DNA of 64,000 nt. Origin: a bacterium. Its GTDB lineage: Bacteria; Patescibacteriota; Minisyncoccia; Moranbacterales; UBA2206. The translations under genes were made by a program, and so were the position numbers. The stretch's first letter is position 1, and every line of letters starts with the position of its first letter. Below the pieces are notes generated by a model, which was not told where the DNA came from, made no database searches, and saw nothing but the letters and a program-made list of their open reading frames with translations. Positions 2,995 to 55,450 of this stretch are shown piece after piece. The stretch spans positions 10,448 to 74,447 of the forward strand of contig JAURXY010000026.1 in the NCBI GenBank assembly GCA_030654225.1, in the 5' to 3' direction.

Positions 2995-3498
2995 ATGCTT
3001 ATCGAATCAATTAGAAAGCGTCGGAGCATTCGGGTTTATAAATCTGACCCGATCTCGGATGAAATGGTCGAAGAGGTGATAAGAGCGGGAAAAATTGCCC
3101 CATCAGCTCATGGCGCAGATGCCTTAGAATTCATTGTGGTCAAAAAACAAGAAATGAAGGAGGCTATTTTTGTCATCGTCGGACAAGAAGTCGAGCAAGA
3201 TTTTGTCAAAGAAGCGCCAGTCATCATCATCCCGGTCGCCACTCACGAAGCAAAACTTCCGGTGCAGGATATTGCGGTTGCTTCTGAAAATATGTTTTTG
3301 CAAGCGACGGCGCTGGGGCTAGGCAGTGTCTGGAAAAATATCTCACCCGAGTTTGAAGGAAAGATAAAAACCTTGCTGGGCATTCCGGATAATGCCAAGG
3401 TGATCAATTTAATCCCATTGGGCTTTTCAGGCGAAGAAAAAGAGGAACACACCGAAGATGTGTCAGTGACGGAAAAAATTCACATGGAAAAGTGGTGA
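2995..3498 (+). CDS. nitroreductase family protein
   Basis: N-terminal RRSIRxY motif, about 165 aa. Confidence 0.7.
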   Translation: MLIESIRKRRSIRVYKSDPISDEMVEEVIRAGKIAPSAHGADALEFIVVKKQEMKEAIFVIVGQEVEQDFVKEAPVIIIPVATHEAKLPVQDIAVASENMFLQATALGLGSVWKNISPEFEGKIKTLLGIPDNAKVINLIPLGFSGEEKEEHTEDVSVTEKIHMEKW

Positions 3499-3554
3499 TA
3501 TTTGTTAGATAATATGTTAAGTAACATTTTATAAATAATTAATTATATAAAAAT

Positions 3555-16484: not shown

Positions 16485-16488
16485 AATC

Positions 16489-16575
16489 TTTACTAATTAC
16501 GAATTAAGTACGAATATACTAATAAAAAATTCGTACATTCGTATATTAGTAAATGATTAATAATTCGTAAAGACA
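16489..16575. repeat. TACGAAT/ATTCGTA palindromic intergenic repeat, copy a
   Basis: about 85 percent identical to 48968-49047; imperfect palindrome. Confidence 0.7.
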
Positions 16576-21695: not shown

Positions 21696-21777
21696 GATTT
21701 ATTGGGGGAAAGGGGGGTAGAATGGAAGTGTTAAGTAAAGTGTTAAGTAACAAGTTCAGTAACATAAATATAAACAT

Positions 21778-24507: not shown

Positions 24508-24810
24508 ATAATTGACGCAGGATATTATTTTGTTATAATTCTATTATACCGAAAAAAAACCGAACTAGCAAAAGCGAGTTATCCACAGCACGACCCTTTG
24601 AATATTTTAAGTAAAACTAATTTTTTGTTCAGCGACATGCTAAGTAACACTTTTTTTATTAGAACTGGTTCTTGGAAAGCTTGTCGGGAATAGGGTATAG
24701 AATAAGCAACAGCTATTGACATAATAAACTCAATCAATTAAGATTATTTTACTGGGTAATTTCGAAACCCTAGTCGTTTCGTTTTTTTAATTTAATGATT
24801 TTTATTTTAT

Positions 24811-25230: not shown

Positions 25231-25354
25231 TTGAAAATCTTTACGAATTACTAATCAAATACTAATATACGAATAATATTTATAAGTTGAGAGAATTTTT
25301 TTAGTTTACATTAGTATATTCGTACTTAATTCGTAATTAGTAAAGAATAAGTTT

Positions 25355-25822
25355 ATGGCAAGAAGAAAAAGAATTTATCAAAAAAATACTAAACCTGATC
25401 CAAAGTATAACAACATACTAGTTGGAAAATTTATGGTGAGCATCATGGAAAGCGGAAAGAAAACTATTGCAGAAAAAATAATGTATGATTCTTTTGATAT
25501 CATTCACGAAAGAACAAAAAAGGGTGGTTTGAATATTTTTGAACAAGCTATTAAGAATGTTTCTCCTTTGGTGGAATTGAAATCCCGCCGAGTTGGAGGT
25601 GCTAACTATCAGGTGCCTGTTCCCGTAGCAGGAGACAGAAGAACAACTTTGGCTATTCGTTGGTTAAAAGTAGCTATTAATGCGAAAAAAGGCAAGAAAA
25701 TGGCAGAAAAATTGGCTGATGAACTAATTGATGCTTCCAACAAAATTGGCGGAGCTATGAAAAAACGAGAAGATGTTCATCGAATGGCTGATGCTAATAA
25801 GGCTTTTGCGCACTTCGCTTAA
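25355..25822 (+). CDS. rpsG: 30S ribosomal protein S7
   Basis: family match, 155 aa. Confidence 0.95.
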   Translation: MARRKRIYQKNTKPDPKYNNILVGKFMVSIMESGKKTIAEKIMYDSFDIIHERTKKGGLNIFEQAIKNVSPLVELKSRRVGGANYQVPVPVAGDRRTTLAIRWLKVAINAKKGKKMAEKLADELIDASNKIGGAMKKREDVHRMADANKAFAHFA

Positions 25823-25924
25823 TTTACGAAAGTACGAATCTGGCGAAATTACGAATTCGTATTTTCGTTTAATTCGTATATTCGTAAATTATAAATAAAA
25901 TTAAGAAAGTAAAAATCAAATTAT

Positions 25925-29805: not shown

Positions 29806-29833
29806 GTAGAGACGCAAAATTTTGCGTCTCTAC
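29806..29833. repeat. 28-bp perfect palindrome GTAGAGACGCAAAATTTTGCGTCTCTAC (REP-like), copy 1, 25 bp upstream of RAYT gene
   Basis: exact copies at 30147-30174 and 54579-54606. Confidence 0.9.
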
Positions 29834-29858: not shown

Positions 29859-30416
29859 ATGTCAGAATTATTCAAAAACAAATACACAATTAAATCATCC
29901 AGATTATCAAATTATGATTATTCTCAAAATGGAATGTACTTCGTTACGATTTGCACGAAAGACAAGGAATATTTTTTTGGGGAGGTGAAAAATGGGGGAA
30001 TGGTGTTGAATGATGTGGGGAAAATGGCAGATAAATATTGGCGCGAAATTCCAGCGCATTTTCCATTTGTAAGATTAGATGAATTTGTTGTAATGCCCAA
30101 TCATGTGCATGGGATTGTGGAAATTGCAAAAAACATTGATGCTAGCGTAGAGACGCAAAATTTTGCGTCTCTACAGGGCGAAAGGGGAAATAAATTTGGT
30201 CCACAATCAAAAAATTTAGCCTCTATAATTCGTGGTTTTAAGGTGGGGGTAAAAAAATATACAACAAAAAATGAAATTTATTTCCAATGGCAACCCCGTT
30301 ATTACGACCAAATAATTCGAAACGAAATTTCCCTAAACAAAATTCGTGAATATATCCAAATTAATCCGCAGATGTGGGAAAGAGATAAAAACAGTTTAGA
30401 AAATATATTTATGTAA
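29859..30416 (+). CDS. REP-associated tyrosine transposase (RAYT) / IS200-like HuH transposase
   Basis: HuH motif MPNHVHGIV; C-terminal EYIQINP and RYYDQ Tyr region; contains in-frame REP copy 2. Confidence 0.7.
   Translation: MSELFKNKYTIKSSRLSNYDYSQNGMYFVTICTKDKEYFFGEVKNGGMVLNDVGKMADKYWREIPAHFPFVRLDEFVVMPNHVHGIVEIAKNIDASVETQNFASLQGERGNKFGPQSKNLASIIRGFKVGVKKYTTKNEIYFQWQPRYYDQIIRNEISLNKIREYIQINPQMWERDKNSLENIFM
30147..30174. repeat. REP-like 28-bp palindrome copy 2, in-frame inside RAYT ORF (encodes SVETQNFASLQ)
   Basis: exact palindrome. Confidence 0.9.
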
Positions 30417-39569: not shown

Positions 39570-40115
39570 ATGTCAAAGATTGGAAAAAAAATAATAGCTA
39601 TACCACAAGGAATCGAGGTCAAGCTCGACGGTGAAAAATTGGAAGTCAAGGGACCAAAAGGTACTTTGAATTTGGAAATTAATCGACAAATCAAAGTAGA
39701 GGTCACTGACGGAGAAATGAAATTTTCCCGCACAAGGAACACGAAAGAAGCTAATGCTCTTTGGGGGCTCACGCGAGCACTAGTGAATAATATGATTATT
39801 GGTGCTAAAGATGGATATGAAAAGAAACTGGAACTGCAAGGAGTGGGCTTTCGAATGGCTTTGCAAGGAAAGAAATTGGTAATGGCACTGGGTTTTTCAC
39901 ATCCAGTGGAAGCCGAGATTCCAGAAGGACTAACGGTTAAAATTGAAGATAATAATGTCCTCTCAATTTCTGGATTTGATAAACAAAAAGTTGGGCAATT
40001 TGCAGCTAATATCAGAGCCCTAAAAGAAGTCGAACCATATAAGGGTAAGGGTTTTAGATATCAAGGAGAAAAAGTTAGAAGAAAAGTCGGCAAGAAAGCC
40101 GGCGCCGTAAAGTAA
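39570..40115 (+). CDS. rplF: 50S ribosomal protein L6
   Basis: family match. Confidence 0.95.
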   Translation: MSKIGKKIIAIPQGIEVKLDGEKLEVKGPKGTLNLEINRQIKVEVTDGEMKFSRTRNTKEANALWGLTRALVNNMIIGAKDGYEKKLELQGVGFRMALQGKKLVMALGFSHPVEAEIPEGLTVKIEDNNVLSISGFDKQKVGQFAANIRALKEVEPYKGKGFRYQGEKVRRKVGKKAGAVK

Positions 40116-40192
40116 AATTTACGAAAGTACGAATTAAACTAAATTACGAATTCGTATTTTCGCTCGATTAGTAATTTCGTAAATGAAAAACA

Positions 40193-40540
40193 ATGAAAAA
40201 TAGTAGAAACAATTTAAGATTACATCGAAAAAAGCGAATAAAAGCTAAGATTAAGGGTGACGCAAAAAGACCACGCTTAGCAGTTTTCAAAAGTCTCACG
40301 GGCATATCTGCTCAGGTTATTGATGATGAGAAATCAACTACAATAGTTTCGGCGTATCTCAAAGAAATAAAGCAAGCTAAAAATGATATCGAAGGCGCAA
40401 AAAATATTGGAATTTTGATAGCTAAAAAATGCTTAGAGAAAAAGATTAGCGAAATTGTATATGACAGAAGTGGTTATAAATATCATGGAAAAATAAAAGC
40501 GCTAGCGCAGGGAGCTAGAGAGGGCGGACTAAAATTCTAA
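40193..40540 (+). CDS. rplR: 50S ribosomal protein L18
   Basis: family match. Confidence 0.9.
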   Translation: MKNSRNNLRLHRKKRIKAKIKGDAKRPRLAVFKSLTGISAQVIDDEKSTTIVSAYLKEIKQAKNDIEGAKNIGILIAKKCLEKKISEIVYDRSGYKYHGKIKALAQGAREGGLKF

Positions 40541-44336: not shown

Positions 44337-44342
44337 AAAATT

Positions 44343-44462
44343 GTCATTCCCGCGAAGGCGGGAATCTAGTGTAGAAGCTAAATAAAAAAGAATAGATTAT
44401 ATAAAAAGATTGGTTATTTTAAAATAAACTTAAGACTAGATCCCCGCATCCGCGGGGATGAC
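44343..44462. mobile_element. MITE-like element A1 (28-bp TIRs GTCATTCCCGCGAAGGCGGGAATCTAGT / ACTAGATCCCCGCATCCGCGGGGATGAC)
   Basis: imperfect terminal inverted repeats, each itself a hairpin; AT-rich core; second copy at 54342-54435. Confidence 0.65.
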
Positions 44463-44541
44463 AGAGAAAAAAGAAATAAAAAAAACCGGAGATATGTCAG
44501 ATGTTACTAGACACATGCCCCGGTTCGGCCAATTGCAAGCC

Positions 44542-44862
44542 CTAGGTTTTTTTCAGACGCATATTCGTCTGGATGTTGCATCGCTCTTTCAGGTCATTTT
44601 CGATCCGTGGAGATTCTGAAGATTGGAAGGTGGCGGTGATTCTCGATCGGAAAAAAAATGCTACCACTATAAAAGCTAAAAGCGAGCCTATAATGGCGAA
44701 TTTTATGAGATCGGTTTCGTCGTATATGACGAAGCCATTCTTATAAAGATCTATTCCGATATTTCCGCAGAAACACACGGGTATTATACCGCCGGTCACA
44801 ACCACGAGTAAGAATAATTTTATTGCATTTACAACTTTCGGATTCAATGATCTTTTTTTCAT
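44542..44862 (-). CDS. hypothetical membrane protein
   Basis: two TM helices; minus-strand hairpin + T8 terminator at 44478-44525. Confidence 0.4.
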   Translation of the reverse strand: MKKRSLNPKVVNAIKLFLLVVVTGGIIPVCFCGNIGIDLYKNGFVIYDETDLIKFAIIGSLLAFIVVAFFFRSRITATFQSSESPRIENDLKERCNIQTNMRLKKT

Positions 44863-48938: not shown

Positions 48939-48967
48939 TTTGAAGATATAAATATAAATTAATTTTT

Positions 48968-49047
48968 ACTAATTACTAATTTTATACGAATATACTAATA
49001 AAAAATTTGTACATTCGTATATTAGTAAGTGATTAGTAATTCGTAAA
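48968..49047. repeat. TACGAAT/ATTCGTA palindromic intergenic repeat, copy h
   Basis: about 85 percent identical to 16489-16575. Confidence 0.7.
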
Positions 49048-49050
49048 GTT

Positions 49051-52863: not shown

Positions 52864-53085
52864 ATGCAGTATGTTTATGTCTTGAAAAGTAAAAAAGATA
52901 ATAAAAATTATGTAGGTTATACTAAAAATTTAAAATTAAGATTTGAGCAACATAACAAAGGACTGGTGCTTTCTACTAAAAATAGAATACCACTAAGTCT
53001 TATATATTATGAAGCTTGCCTAAATCAACAAGATGCTACTAAAAGAGAAAAGTATCTAAAACTATTTACGGCAAGCGATATATAA
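52864..53085 (+). CDS. GIY-YIG nuclease family small protein (YhbQ-like)
   Basis: YVYVLKS ... YVGYT ... RFEQH ... KRE motifs. Confidence 0.7.
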   Translation: MQYVYVLKSKKDNKNYVGYTKNLKLRFEQHNKGLVLSTKNRIPLSLIYYEACLNQQDATKREKYLKLFTASDI

Positions 53086-53117
53086 AAAGTAGGCTCAAAT
53101 CTTATTTAATAGGGTAA

Positions 53118-53324: not shown

Positions 53325-54354
53325 GAAAATCATAAAAAGTATTTGGGAGAAAGCACAAAAAATTAATCGATCACTTCGATTTATGGAACTTTGTGGAACG
53401 CATTCAGAAAGTATTGCTAAACATGGGATAAAAAATATTTTACCAAAAAATATAAAACTCATTACCGGACCTGGCTGTCCGGTTTGCGTCACTGATCAAA
53501 GTGAAATTGATATTGTCACGGGACTAGCGCTCGCTGGAATTCCAATTGCTTGCTATGGAGACGCCACTAACATTCCTGGAAGTTTAGGTAGCTTGGAAAA
53601 TGCTCGGCAAAATGGTGCGCAAGTTTTCATTGTTTATGATGTGGCAGAAGCCATTGAAATTTCCAAAAAAATTTCCAATTTGGTTTTTTGGGGAATTGGT
53701 TTTGAAACAACCACTTCGATGACAGCATGGGGGATTAAAAACAATCTTACAGTTTTTTCTTCCCACAAACTTTTTCCGCCAGCTATGGAAGCGTTGATGG
53801 CAAACAAAAAAATTAGAGTTGATGGCTTTATCAATCCGGGTCATGTGAGTGCTATTATCGGAACGAAAGTTTATGAAAAATTCCAAATACCACAAGTGAT
53901 TGCTGGCTTTGGCGCAGAGGACGTTCTTCTGGCGATTGAAATGCTTTTGGATCAAATAATTTCTGGAGAAAAAAAAGTGGAAAATGAATATGCGAGACTG
54001 GTGAAAAAGGAAGGCAATATAAAAGCGAGAAAATTAATTTCAGAAGTTTTTGAAATCAGAAATGCTTCTTGGCGAGGTTTGGGAGAAATCAAAAATTCCG
54101 GATTGAAAATTCGAAAAAAATATCAGCATCTTGACGCTGAATTTATCCATCGAGATTTGATTGCGAAAATAAAAAAAGAAATTAAACCAAGAAAAAGTAT
54201 CTGTCGTTGTGGAGAAGTTTTGCAAGGATTGATTGAATCAAAGCAATGTAAATTATTTGGAAAATCTTGCACGCCTGACAATCCTCAAGGTGCTTGCATG
54301 GTTTCGAGGGAAGGGAGTTGTAATATTGAGTACAGATTTATGTCATTCCCGTGA
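53314..54354 (+). CDS. hypD: hydrogenase maturation factor HypD
   Basis: CGTHS ... GPGCPVC motifs; last 4 codons and stop lie inside MITE TIR. Confidence 0.85.
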   Translation: MESKKIIKSIWEKAQKINRSLRFMELCGTHSESIAKHGIKNILPKNIKLITGPGCPVCVTDQSEIDIVTGLALAGIPIACYGDATNIPGSLGSLENARQNGAQVFIVYDVAEAIEISKKISNLVFWGIGFETTTSMTAWGIKNNLTVFSSHKLFPPAMEALMANKKIRVDGFINPGHVSAIIGTKVYEKFQIPQVIAGFGAEDVLLAIEMLLDQIISGEKKVENEYARLVKKEGNIKARKLISEVFEIRNASWRGLGEIKNSGLKIRKKYQHLDAEFIHRDLIAKIKKEIKPRKSICRCGEVLQGLIESKQCKLFGKSCTPDNPQGACMVSREGSCNIEYRFMSFP

Positions 54355-54435
54355 AAACGGGAATCTAGTCATAAAAATGTTTTTATCGCGATAAATTTAA
54401 TTTCTACACTAGATCCCCGCATTCGCGAGGATGAC
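54342..54435. mobile_element. MITE-like element A2 (TIRs GTCATTCCCGTGAAAACGGGAATCTAGT / ACTAGATCCCCGCATTCGCGAGGATGAC)
   Basis: same architecture as 44343-44462; lies between hypD and hypE, overlapping the hypD stop. Confidence 0.65.
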
Positions 54436-54442
54436 AAACTTT

Positions 54443-55450
54443 ATGAATAAAATAATTGAATTAGAAATGGGCGGAGGAGGAAAAAAATCGGAAGAACTTA
54501 TTGGAAACATAAGGAAAATTTTGAATGTTCGTGGAAAATGGAAAAACACTAAGGATGATGGGGCGGTTTTTGACTTGAGTAGAGACGCAAAATTTTGCGT
54601 CTCTACGGGGGGTAATAAGTTGGTGTTTACCACCGATGCTTTTATTGTTGACCCACTGTTTTTTCCGGGAGGGGATATTGGAAAAATTGCGATTTGCGGA
54701 ACGTTAAATGATCTTTCGGTTATGGGCGCTAAGCCGATTGGAATTTCACTCAGTATTGTAATCGAAGAAGGATTTTTGCAAAACGATTTGGAAAAAATAA
54801 TTCAGTCTATAAATAAAATTTCGAAAGTTACAGGCGTTCCGATTGTGACGGGGGACACAAAGGTGACAGAAAAAGGCAAGATAGATAAAATTGAAATTAC
54901 CACTTCGGGAGTAGGGCTCGCTTCAAAAATAATTTCTAATGATGGCGCAAAAGTGGGGGATGATATAATCGTTTCTGGCGATCTTGGTGAGCACGCAGTA
55001 GCGCTTTTGGCCAAGAGATTTAACTATCAAACAAAAATAAAAAGCGATTGTCAACCGCTCATTGCCGAAATTCAAAGTGTAGCTAAATATCTTACTTCTT
55101 GCAAGGATCCAACGCGTGGCGGACTGTCCGCTGTGCTAAATGAAATGGCGGAAAAATCCAAAACTAAATTTGTTTTAGATGAAAAAAATTTACCATTTAA
55201 AAAAGAAACTGTGGCAATTTCAGAACTTCTTGGCATTGATTTTTTTTCTTTTCCATCAGAAGGAAGGTTTGTGGCGACAGTGGCGAGAAAAAATTCCAAG
55301 AGAGTTGTTGAAATTTTGAAAAAATATAATAAATCTGCTAGAATAATTGGAGAAGTGCAAAGGGGCAAAGAAGTTTGGCTGAAAACCAAAATTGGATCTG
55401 TCAAAAAAATTGAAGTGCCAAGAGGAAAATTAATTCCACGGATTTGCTAA
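54443..55450 (+). CDS. hypE: hydrogenase maturation factor HypE
   Basis: DPLFFPGGDIGKIAICGTLNDL; contains in-frame REP-like palindrome. Confidence 0.85.
   Translation: MNKIIELEMGGGGKKSEELIGNIRKILNVRGKWKNTKDDGAVFDLSRDAKFCVSTGGNKLVFTTDAFIVDPLFFPGGDIGKIAICGTLNDLSVMGAKPIGISLSIVIEEGFLQNDLEKIIQSINKISKVTGVPIVTGDTKVTEKGKIDKIEITTSGVGLASKIISNDGAKVGDDIIVSGDLGEHAVALLAKRFNYQTKIKSDCQPLIAEIQSVAKYLTSCKDPTRGGLSAVLNEMAEKSKTKFVLDEKNLPFKKETVAISELLGIDFFSFPSEGRFVATVARKNSKRVVEILKKYNKSARIIGEVQRGKEVWLKTKIGSVKKIEVPRGKLIPRIC
54579..54606. repeat. REP-like 28-bp palindrome copy 3, in-frame inside hypE (encodes RDAKFCVST)
   Basis: exact copy of 29806-29833. Confidence 0.9.

Follow-up and report, generated by a model that had tools for sequence, protein, structure and literature searches.

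What becomes of two conserved genes when a repeat element enters the few bases between them, and how much of either gene does the element then supply? The question is raised by the hypD-hypE junction of an uncultivated Moranbacterium, on a 64,000-nt (64-kb) stretch of contig JAURXY010000026.1 (GenBank assembly GCA_030654225.1, positions 10,448 to 74,447), the whole of which we analysed and call the window. A preliminary description had drawn a miniature inverted-repeat transposable element (MITE), copy A2, from 54342 to 54445 and had it supply both the stop codon of hypD and the ATG region of hypE. Our analysis makes it probable that A2, a dimer of SRM/NTS-type hairpin repeats, is REPIN-like and non-autonomous and was inserted between the two genes, with the tail and stop codon of HypD taken from the element and hypE left with its own ATG at 54443.

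Counting the flanking T and A that are common to every copy, A2 is 96 bp long and consists of two inverted arms of 28-29 nt each around an AT-rich spacer of 38 nt (Table 1). The left arm without its flanking T, GTCATTCCCGTGAAAACGGGAATCTAGT, lies at 54342-54369, and the right arm, which reads ACTAGATCCCCGCATTCGCGAGGATGACA on the top strand after the spacer, ends with ...GCGAGGATGAC at 54435. The end previously drawn thus lies 9 nt beyond the element, and the part in excess is what took in the hypE ATG. The inverted repeat covers 52 nt with 73% complementarity, and each arm alone is in addition a predicted hairpin of single-stranded DNA (ssDNA) with an 8-bp stem and a 4-nt loop (-7.8 kcal/mol for the left arm in a DNA fold). 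The arms are directional, with a conserved 5' (C/T)GTCAT tag and a 3' ATCYRG tail.

Table 1. Coordinates of the two elements and of the genes at the hypD-hypE junction (window numbering).
Feature	Position	Strand	Basis and remarks
Element A1, 122 bp	44342..44463	.	Intergenic, 5 nt after the stop of methionine aminopeptidase (map)
hypD coding sequence, 346 aa	53314..54354	+	Open reading frame (ORF) list; PF01924 HypD relatives up to 92% identity; last 14 nt (54341-54354) within A2
Element A2, head-to-head dimer of SRM/NTS-type hairpin repeats, 96 bp	54341..54436	.	SRM pattern; junction without A2 in L124, L123 and L002
A2 left arm TGTCATTCCCGTGAAAACGGGAATCTAGT	54341..54369	+	SRM match, 3 mismatches to NTS; dRS3 core ATTCCC-N8-GGGAAT
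hypD TGA stop	54352..54354	+	From the CGTG (not CGCG) arm variant
A2 spacer, AT-rich, holding TTATCGCGATAAA	54370..54407	.	Core also in the L051 copy (Moranbacteria RIFOXYA12_FULL_35_19)
A2 right arm, reverse complement TGTCATCCTCGCGAATGCGGGGATCTAGT	54408..54436	-	SRM match; DNA fold -6.4 kcal/mol; holds GAGGA and the in-frame ATG
Element-borne in-frame ATG, in GGATGAC	54431..54433	+	Within the RNA stem; 12 nt before ATG 54443
hypE coding sequence from the ancestral start, 335 aa	54443..55450	+	ATG aligns with the relatives' ATG; NCBI-annotated protein P0121

The three closest relatives (loci L124, L123 and L002) show the junction in its empty state. In all three A2 is missing, HypD ends in RFTE-TAA and hypE starts 4-6 nt further on: L124 reads ...cgt ttc ACT GAA TAA aatt ATG aaa aat aaa ata atc, L123 reads ...ACT GAA TAA tatt ATG aaa aat aat aaa and L002 reads ...ACT GAA TAA aataat ATG. 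The window, aligned to these, has aga ttt A[element]AA CTTT ATG aat aaa ata att. Missing at the insertion point are about 6 nt, which are CTGAAT in the relatives and have the T of the native TAA among them. L124 has two other insertions in common with the window, a GIY-YIG gene between a NuoG-like gene and hypC and an RDAKFCVST-encoding palindrome inside hypE, yet no A2 at the hypD-hypE junction. Judged by these alignments, A2 is an insertion confined to the lineage of the window's Moranbacterium, as expected of the mobile element that had been proposed here. A repeat-induced misjoin during assembly could also have placed A2 between the two genes, as the sequence is a metagenome-assembled genome and members of this repeat family are frequently found on contigs of very small size; however, this contig is 101 kb long, the order hypC-hypD-hypE-hypF is the same in the window and its relatives, and both frames are open across the junction, which leaves an artefact of this kind exceedingly improbable.

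The consequences for HypD follow from the same comparison. Among the best 120 HypD matches (the window's own protein included) the conserved core ends in ...SCN(I/V)(E/N)(Y/F)R(F/Y) and is followed by 0-10 variable residues, most commonly TE, LS, GK or NN. The window protein ends in ...CMVSREGSCNIEYRF-MSFP-TGA (...EYRF-MSFP-TGA), of which the element encodes the TG of the Met codon and then Ser-Phe-Pro-TGA, and a tail of MSFP occurs in 0 of the 119 relatives. Because the element-free relatives end in RFTE-TAA and none in MSFP, the last residues and the stop codon of HypD are, on this alignment, element-derived and the native stop was lost. The preliminary description had named the C-termini of relatives as the place to look, and they bear it out on this point, since those without the element end in TE, LS, GK and the like. 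The conserved ...CNIEYRF core is unaltered, with only the variable tail TE swapped for MSFP. The TGA sits at the stem/loop junction of the left-arm hairpin and is due to an arm variant with C>T at position 12 and a compensating G>A at position 17.

A2 was thus inserted into a spacer of 4-6 nt, with a reconstructed loss of about 6 nt, among them the first base of the native TAA. With the native stop gone, the hypD frame continues for about 11 nt in the left arm and ends at a TGA present by chance in this variant of the arm. The change to the protein is likely close to neutral, because the tail is variable in relatives and lies 10 residues after the last conserved Cys. Two further relatives, L001 (4036-5149) and L003 (4036-5025), hold an insert of about 1.1 kb, different from A2, at the same junction, so the junction tolerates insertions; the insert has an ORF of 180 or 207 aa without a Pfam match, and HypD ends there in RYLS followed by two stops.

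If A2 had also remodelled hypE, the functional start of this gene would lie within the element. The ATG at 54443 is instead 6 nt past the element end, in an AU-rich context, and aligns with the start codons of L124, L123 and L002, with one AAA codon fewer than in L124; the NCBI-annotated HypE is 335 aa long and hence starts here. The in-frame ATG that had been noted in GGATGAC, 12 nt upstream, is real, and if it were the true start HypE would carry an element-derived N-terminal MTNF. Counted from Met to the GGGG motif, the two starts give 13 (ATG 54431) and 9 (ATG 54443), and this length does not decide between them given that the relatives have a mode of 11 and commonly 10-13, with 13 within their range. 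ATG 54431 is, however, paired with the left arm in a predicted RNA hairpin of -34.3 kcal/mol (z = -4.2), the 20 nt upstream of it are GC-rich, unlike the AT-rich leaders of the genes of this genome, and ATG 54443 is both the orthologous and the annotated start. We therefore regard initiation at 54431 as unlikely, and the codon is probably an unused by-product.

The GAGGA of the right arm, paired with the left arm in the same fold, was considered as a new Shine-Dalgarno sequence for hypE and rejected. Shine-Dalgarno-like motifs precede 5 of the 51 window genes against a background of 9.8%, so GAGGA is unlikely to be a ribosome-binding site, and the same arm occurs in L051. Neither the TGA nor the ATG nor GAGGA is a local adaptation, because both arm variants occur unchanged in other genomes (the left arm GTCATTCCCGTGAAAACGGGAATCTAGT in L017, L018, L021 and L044, the right arm GTCATCCTCGCGAATGCGGGGATCTAGT in L051). 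In a functional sense A2 thus supplies no start region to hypE, and the reported ATG region is a coincidence of sequence. The preliminary description was right that both genes remain intact, with the hypD core and the ancestral hypE ATG kept; the junction alignment identifies ATG 54443 as orthologous to the relatives' start.

While the protein change is small, A2 may matter more at the level of RNA, where a stable hairpin would now stand between formerly tightly coupled genes. Because the hypD stop lies within the 5' arm, ribosomes that end translation there would open the stem and expose the initiation region of hypE, and in this way coupling could be preserved. A hairpin of this strength might also have been kept as a regulator of the hyp operon, an RNase III site, a stabiliser or attenuator of the mRNA or a WsnRNA46-like small RNA that sets the HypD:HypE ratio. 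Neisseria Correia elements are processed by RNase III. Many REPs (repetitive extragenic palindromes) have been argued to act as RNA elements (Di Nocera 2013, PMC3733652), and both window elements resemble Rfam family RF02625, WsnRNA46 (E = 8e-6 to 8e-7). We nevertheless think a retained regulatory role improbable, as the operon works without A2 in every relative examined, none having it at this junction, and the stem is not followed on its 3' side by a U-run. The Rfam scores (A1, 39.3 and 32 bits; A2, 35.2 and 31.9 bits) are far under the gathering threshold of 65.3 bits, for which reason membership in WsnRNA46 was rejected; matches of the elements to Rfam miRNA families are spurious.

The nature of the element itself is given by its arms. 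All four arms of A2 and of the second copy, A1, match the published SRM pattern HGTCWYN(0-2)YYVSBRHN(0-5)WNVSBRGN(0-2)RNCYNB (Chenal 2025, PMC11893778), at 44342, 44436 (minus strand), 54341 and 54409 (minus strand), and these are the only SRM matches in the 64 kb, where shuffled sequences average 0.1. Our own arm pattern likewise has four matches in the window, arranged in two inverted pairs, where 100 shuffles give an expectation of 0.00, and the arm pairs are thus beyond chance. Under the strict NTS criterion of CGTCATTCCCGCGMAVGCGGGAATCYRG with at most 1 mismatch (Chenal 2025, PMC11893778), the left arm of A1 qualifies with 1 mismatch; the left and right arms of A2 have 3 and 5 and the right arm of A1 has 5, which makes A2 an SRM but not a strict NTS element. 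The exact dRS3 sequence (ATTCCC-N8-GGGAAT) is present in the left arm of both copies, and variants of it, ATCCCC-N8-GGGGAT (A1) and ATCCCC-N8-GAGGAT (A2), in the right arm.

In a scan with the 28-nt arm, taking one genome per species, the arm occurs at at least 119 loci in many phyla; among the matches listed are about 25 genomes of the Candidate Phyla Radiation (CPR) and about 10 Moranbacteria loci. The listed matches come from Proteobacteria, Dehalococcoidia, Acidobacteria, Nitrospirae, Actinobacteria, Bdellovibrionales, Omnitrophota, Neisseria and CPR, and about 40 of these loci have the inverted-pair form. Exact arm matches also lie on contigs binned as a Promethearchaeota (Asgard) archaeon (L093) and as Streptomycetaceae (L042, L099), which could reflect real spread or contamination of the bins. 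In many genomes truncated arm copies stand in runs beside a full arm (GTCATTCCCGC... every 20-25 nt, or ...GGGAATGACGG repeated; L024, L033, L088, L098, L118 and L133) and look like stutter arrays at the ends of elements.

These pairs also bear on the MITE label. A classical MITE would be a deletion derivative of an insertion sequence (IS), moved by a DDE transposase acting on its terminal inverted repeats, and A2 is indeed a small element without a gene of its own, with inverted ends of 28-29 nt, an AT-rich core and several copies. We found, however, no target-site duplication in 79 unique paired elements, in which direct repeats of 2-5 nt at offsets 0-3 are not above expectation and the bases just outside the two ends are Y...R; nor was one seen at A1, A2 or the L123 copy. 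Correia elements have a TA target duplication. Within 1.5 kb of the 119 arm loci listed no transposase family recurs, and none of these loci has a Y1 transposase near its arms. Moreover, the 79 elements fall into 54 gene-less ones of 60-203 bp and 25 gene-bearing ones of 322-506 bp, the long forms encode a GIY-YIG nuclease of about 95 aa instead of a transposase, and each arm is a self-complementary, REP-like hairpin. The classical MITE is thereby already largely refuted and in our view very improbable. Since the arms are NTS/SRM hairpins and the gene-bearing form has a GIY-YIG ssDNA nuclease, A2 is a REP-dimer or REPIN-like element, and 'SRM/NTS hairpin-repeat dimer (REPIN-like)' replaces 'MITE'. 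Stop codons were supplied to genes by 9 of 56 elements, against 17% under random placement.

At two loci a GIY-YIG gene of about 95 aa lies exactly between the arms, and we assembled 80 metagenomic loci picked by the GIY-YIG protein only, 74 of which had enough flank for testing. An inverted repeat (score of at least 14) is common to both 140-nt flanks in 46 of these 74 and in none of 48 control windows. Of the same 74 loci, 46 have a generic arm (GTCAY plus a hairpin) on the upstream side, 52 have one on the downstream side and 39 have both, with a background of 0.03 per window. The catalytic residues Y, Y, G, R, H and E are conserved in 100% of the copies, and stop codons interrupt only 2 of 80. 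Because the arms match SRM, this association is an independent re-derivation of published work and not new: in bacteria of many kinds NTS/SRM repeats flank the cd10448 GIY-YIG gene ssnA, whose product recognises the hairpin in ssDNA only and makes its cut a few nt upstream of it, and NTS-ssnA-NTS has been compared with IS elements and RAYT/REP systems (Chenal 2025, PMC11893778). Biochemistry has been published for the Neisseria and Wolbachia homologues (PMC11893778). Searches of NCBIfam and PDB sequences with the Ssn-like protein gave nothing specific, and in the literature we found no match for VIPAKAGI-type peptides or for the sequence strings. A conserved stretch, ..CCAGACTATAATTACCTTATAATG.., with TATAAT-like boxes lies between the left arm and the start codon of the Ssn-type elements (L134, L149, L155, L203) and may be their own promoter.

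The window has a GIY-YIG ORF of its own at 52864-53085 (region 52864-53114), which we rejected as the partner: it belongs to another, non-Ssn subfamily (32% identity to the Ssn type, with T5orf172 matches as well), is not flanked by arms and is frameshifted. Relative to the intact 84-aa gene of L124, 1 nt is missing from its A-run at 53058-53061, either a frameshift or a sequencing error. L001, L002, L003 and L123 lack this small gene, which in the window stands between the NuoG-like gene and hypC.

By analogy with the biochemistry, the family would have spread through an Ssn-type nuclease encoded by this genome or an ancestor of it; such a nuclease would bind the single-stranded hairpin of an arm and cut just outside it. 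In an extended form of this idea, Ssn would drive head-to-head SRM dimers as true REPIN-like replicators, active even in genomes as small as those of CPR bacteria; the dimers would be able to enter junctions of 4-6 nt because two outward-facing cut sites define the unit, and the stop in the 5' arm together with melting of the stem would keep translation coupled. If so, insertions in compact operons would be tolerated for a structural reason and not by luck, but we hold this form to be doubtful. Several points weigh against our account, or limit how far it reaches. The nearest relatives are just 83-84% identical to the window in DNA (the value for L124 over hypD and hypE), at which distance the exact sequence before the insertion and the loss of 6 nt are reconstructions. 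The Ssn-type gene is absent from the 64-kb window, the top 120 Ssn homologues include none with a CPR name, and A1 and A2 may be orphans. Conservation at E65-W71 and R28-N34 is inflated by the scan for GIY-YIG proteins, which used conserved peptide patterns. The mobilisation of NTS/SRM repeats by Ssn is offered only as a hypothesis in the work that described them (PMC11893778).

Other copies indicate how the dimers travel. A1 has a spacer of 66 nt where A2 has 38 nt, and folds as RNA with -45.6 kcal/mol. A full-length A1-like copy with arms and spacer kept is found in Moraniibacteriota UBA12116 (L106), and an A2-like copy with identical arms and the TTATCGCGATAAA spacer core in Moranbacteria RIFOXYA12_FULL_35_19 (L051). 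The window genes next to A1 and A2 are present at neither locus, and these copies are independent insertions of related dimers. By these comparisons the unit of spread in Moranbacteria is the whole dimer, spacer included. An SRM dimer in L123 occupies the spacer that separates the NuoG-like gene from hypC and stops 5 nt short of the hypC ATG; the same spacer in L003 (2690-2805) is filled by a different palindromic, MITE-like element (CAGAACCACTGATTA...TAATCAGTGGTTCTG). On the minus strand of A1 (44463-44342) the hairpin is followed by AATTTTTT, and for this reason A1 might terminate transcription of the convergent gene at 44542-44862.

Together, A2 offers a clean natural case, with empty-site relatives, in which a hairpin repeat replaced the final codons and stop codon of a conserved gene, at an operon junction just a few bases long, and broke neither gene. 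It also places the NTS/SRM-Ssn repeat family in CPR bacteria, which matters for the annotation of their genomes, where spurious SFPRKRES- or VIPAKAGI-type tails and short ORFs derive from these repeats. On present evidence the effect on the gene end is a known outcome of REP and MITE insertions and no new biology; the NTS/SRM ("dRS3-type") family is already described and very widespread, and A2 is a real but ordinary event within it.

Other repeats occur in the window as well. The hypE frame itself contains a perfect palindrome of 28 nt with a GTAG tag, GTAGAGACGCAAAATTTTGCGTCTCTAC, at 54579-54606 (region 54574-54615), which is read in frame and encodes ..SRDAKFCVSTGG..; it is also found at 29806-29833 and 30146-30174. 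The same HypE loop, flanked by DDGAVFDL and KLVFTTDAF, is short (GKE) in some relatives and in others is occupied by one of many repeat-derived peptides (RDAINRVST, VETPRQGVST, LIPNPSPYKGEGG, TPALSLKRRGG, NLWTSNVHNGHSMS, PSTSLGTNFS). It appears to be a hotspot at which REPs were inserted in frame on separate occasions, much like the Rickettsia RPE. A family of long palindromes rich in ACGAAT/ACTAAT is present at 16485-16572, 25238-25353, 25819-25898, 40113-40193 and 48956-49048. The motif TGTT(A/C)AGTAAC-N-TGTTAAGTAACA stands upstream of several genes (2344-2396, 2935-2987, 3498-3550, 21729-21764, 24621-24673) and may be an operator or promoter element.

Among known systems the closest is NTS/SRM-Ssn (Chenal 2025, PMC11893778): all four window arms fit SRM, one of them is NTS with 1 mismatch, and in other genomes inverted arms bracket a cd10448-type GIY-YIG gene of about 95 aa in the layout of NTS-ssnA-NTS. 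A1 and A2 differ in that their arms enclose a spacer and no gene, with no ssn in the window, in their tag (TGTC, not CGTC) and in their host, a CPR bacterium where that work stresses Pseudomonadati and symbionts. The dRS3 repeats and NIME units (dRS3-RS-dRS3) of Neisseria (Parkhill 2000; Bentley 2007, PMC1797815) share the exact dRS3 left arms and the layout of G+C-rich arms around a low-G+C spacer (19-214 bp in NIMEs), whereas A1 and A2 are single, isolated units and not long arrays, have variant right arms and lack a link to antigen genes or transformation. Along with Rickettsia RPE-4 and RPE-6 and Wolbachia repeats, dRS3 has been classed as a CGTC-tagged REP, mostly in head-to-head dimers that 'apparently lack a dedicated transposase', and REP ends often supply stop codons and some REPs lie within ORFs (Di Nocera 2013, PMC3733652). 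A1 and A2 resemble this class as short tagged palindromes in inverted pairs at or over gene ends without target duplication, although CPR was not among the five phyla listed in 2013. WsnRNA46 aligns with the arms along its outer helix (UGUCAU...GGGAUCcAG / CUgGAUuCC...AUGACA), but the Wolbachia arms have a longer, different hairpin; the sub-threshold match fits with Wolbachia carrying the same superfamily. RPE and Correia elements are, like A2, small palindromes that add codons, stops or starts while conserved genes are kept, but are of other sequence families, save RPE-4 and RPE-6 in the CGTC class (Di Nocera, PMC3733652). Finally, A2 shares with REPINs (Bertels and Rainey 2011) the organisation of two inverted REP hairpins as one mobile unit with its spacer kept at non-orthologous sites; REPINs proper have a GTAG tag and RAYT tyrosine transposases, where the family of A1 and A2 has a (T/C)GTC tag and a candidate GIY-YIG nuclease.

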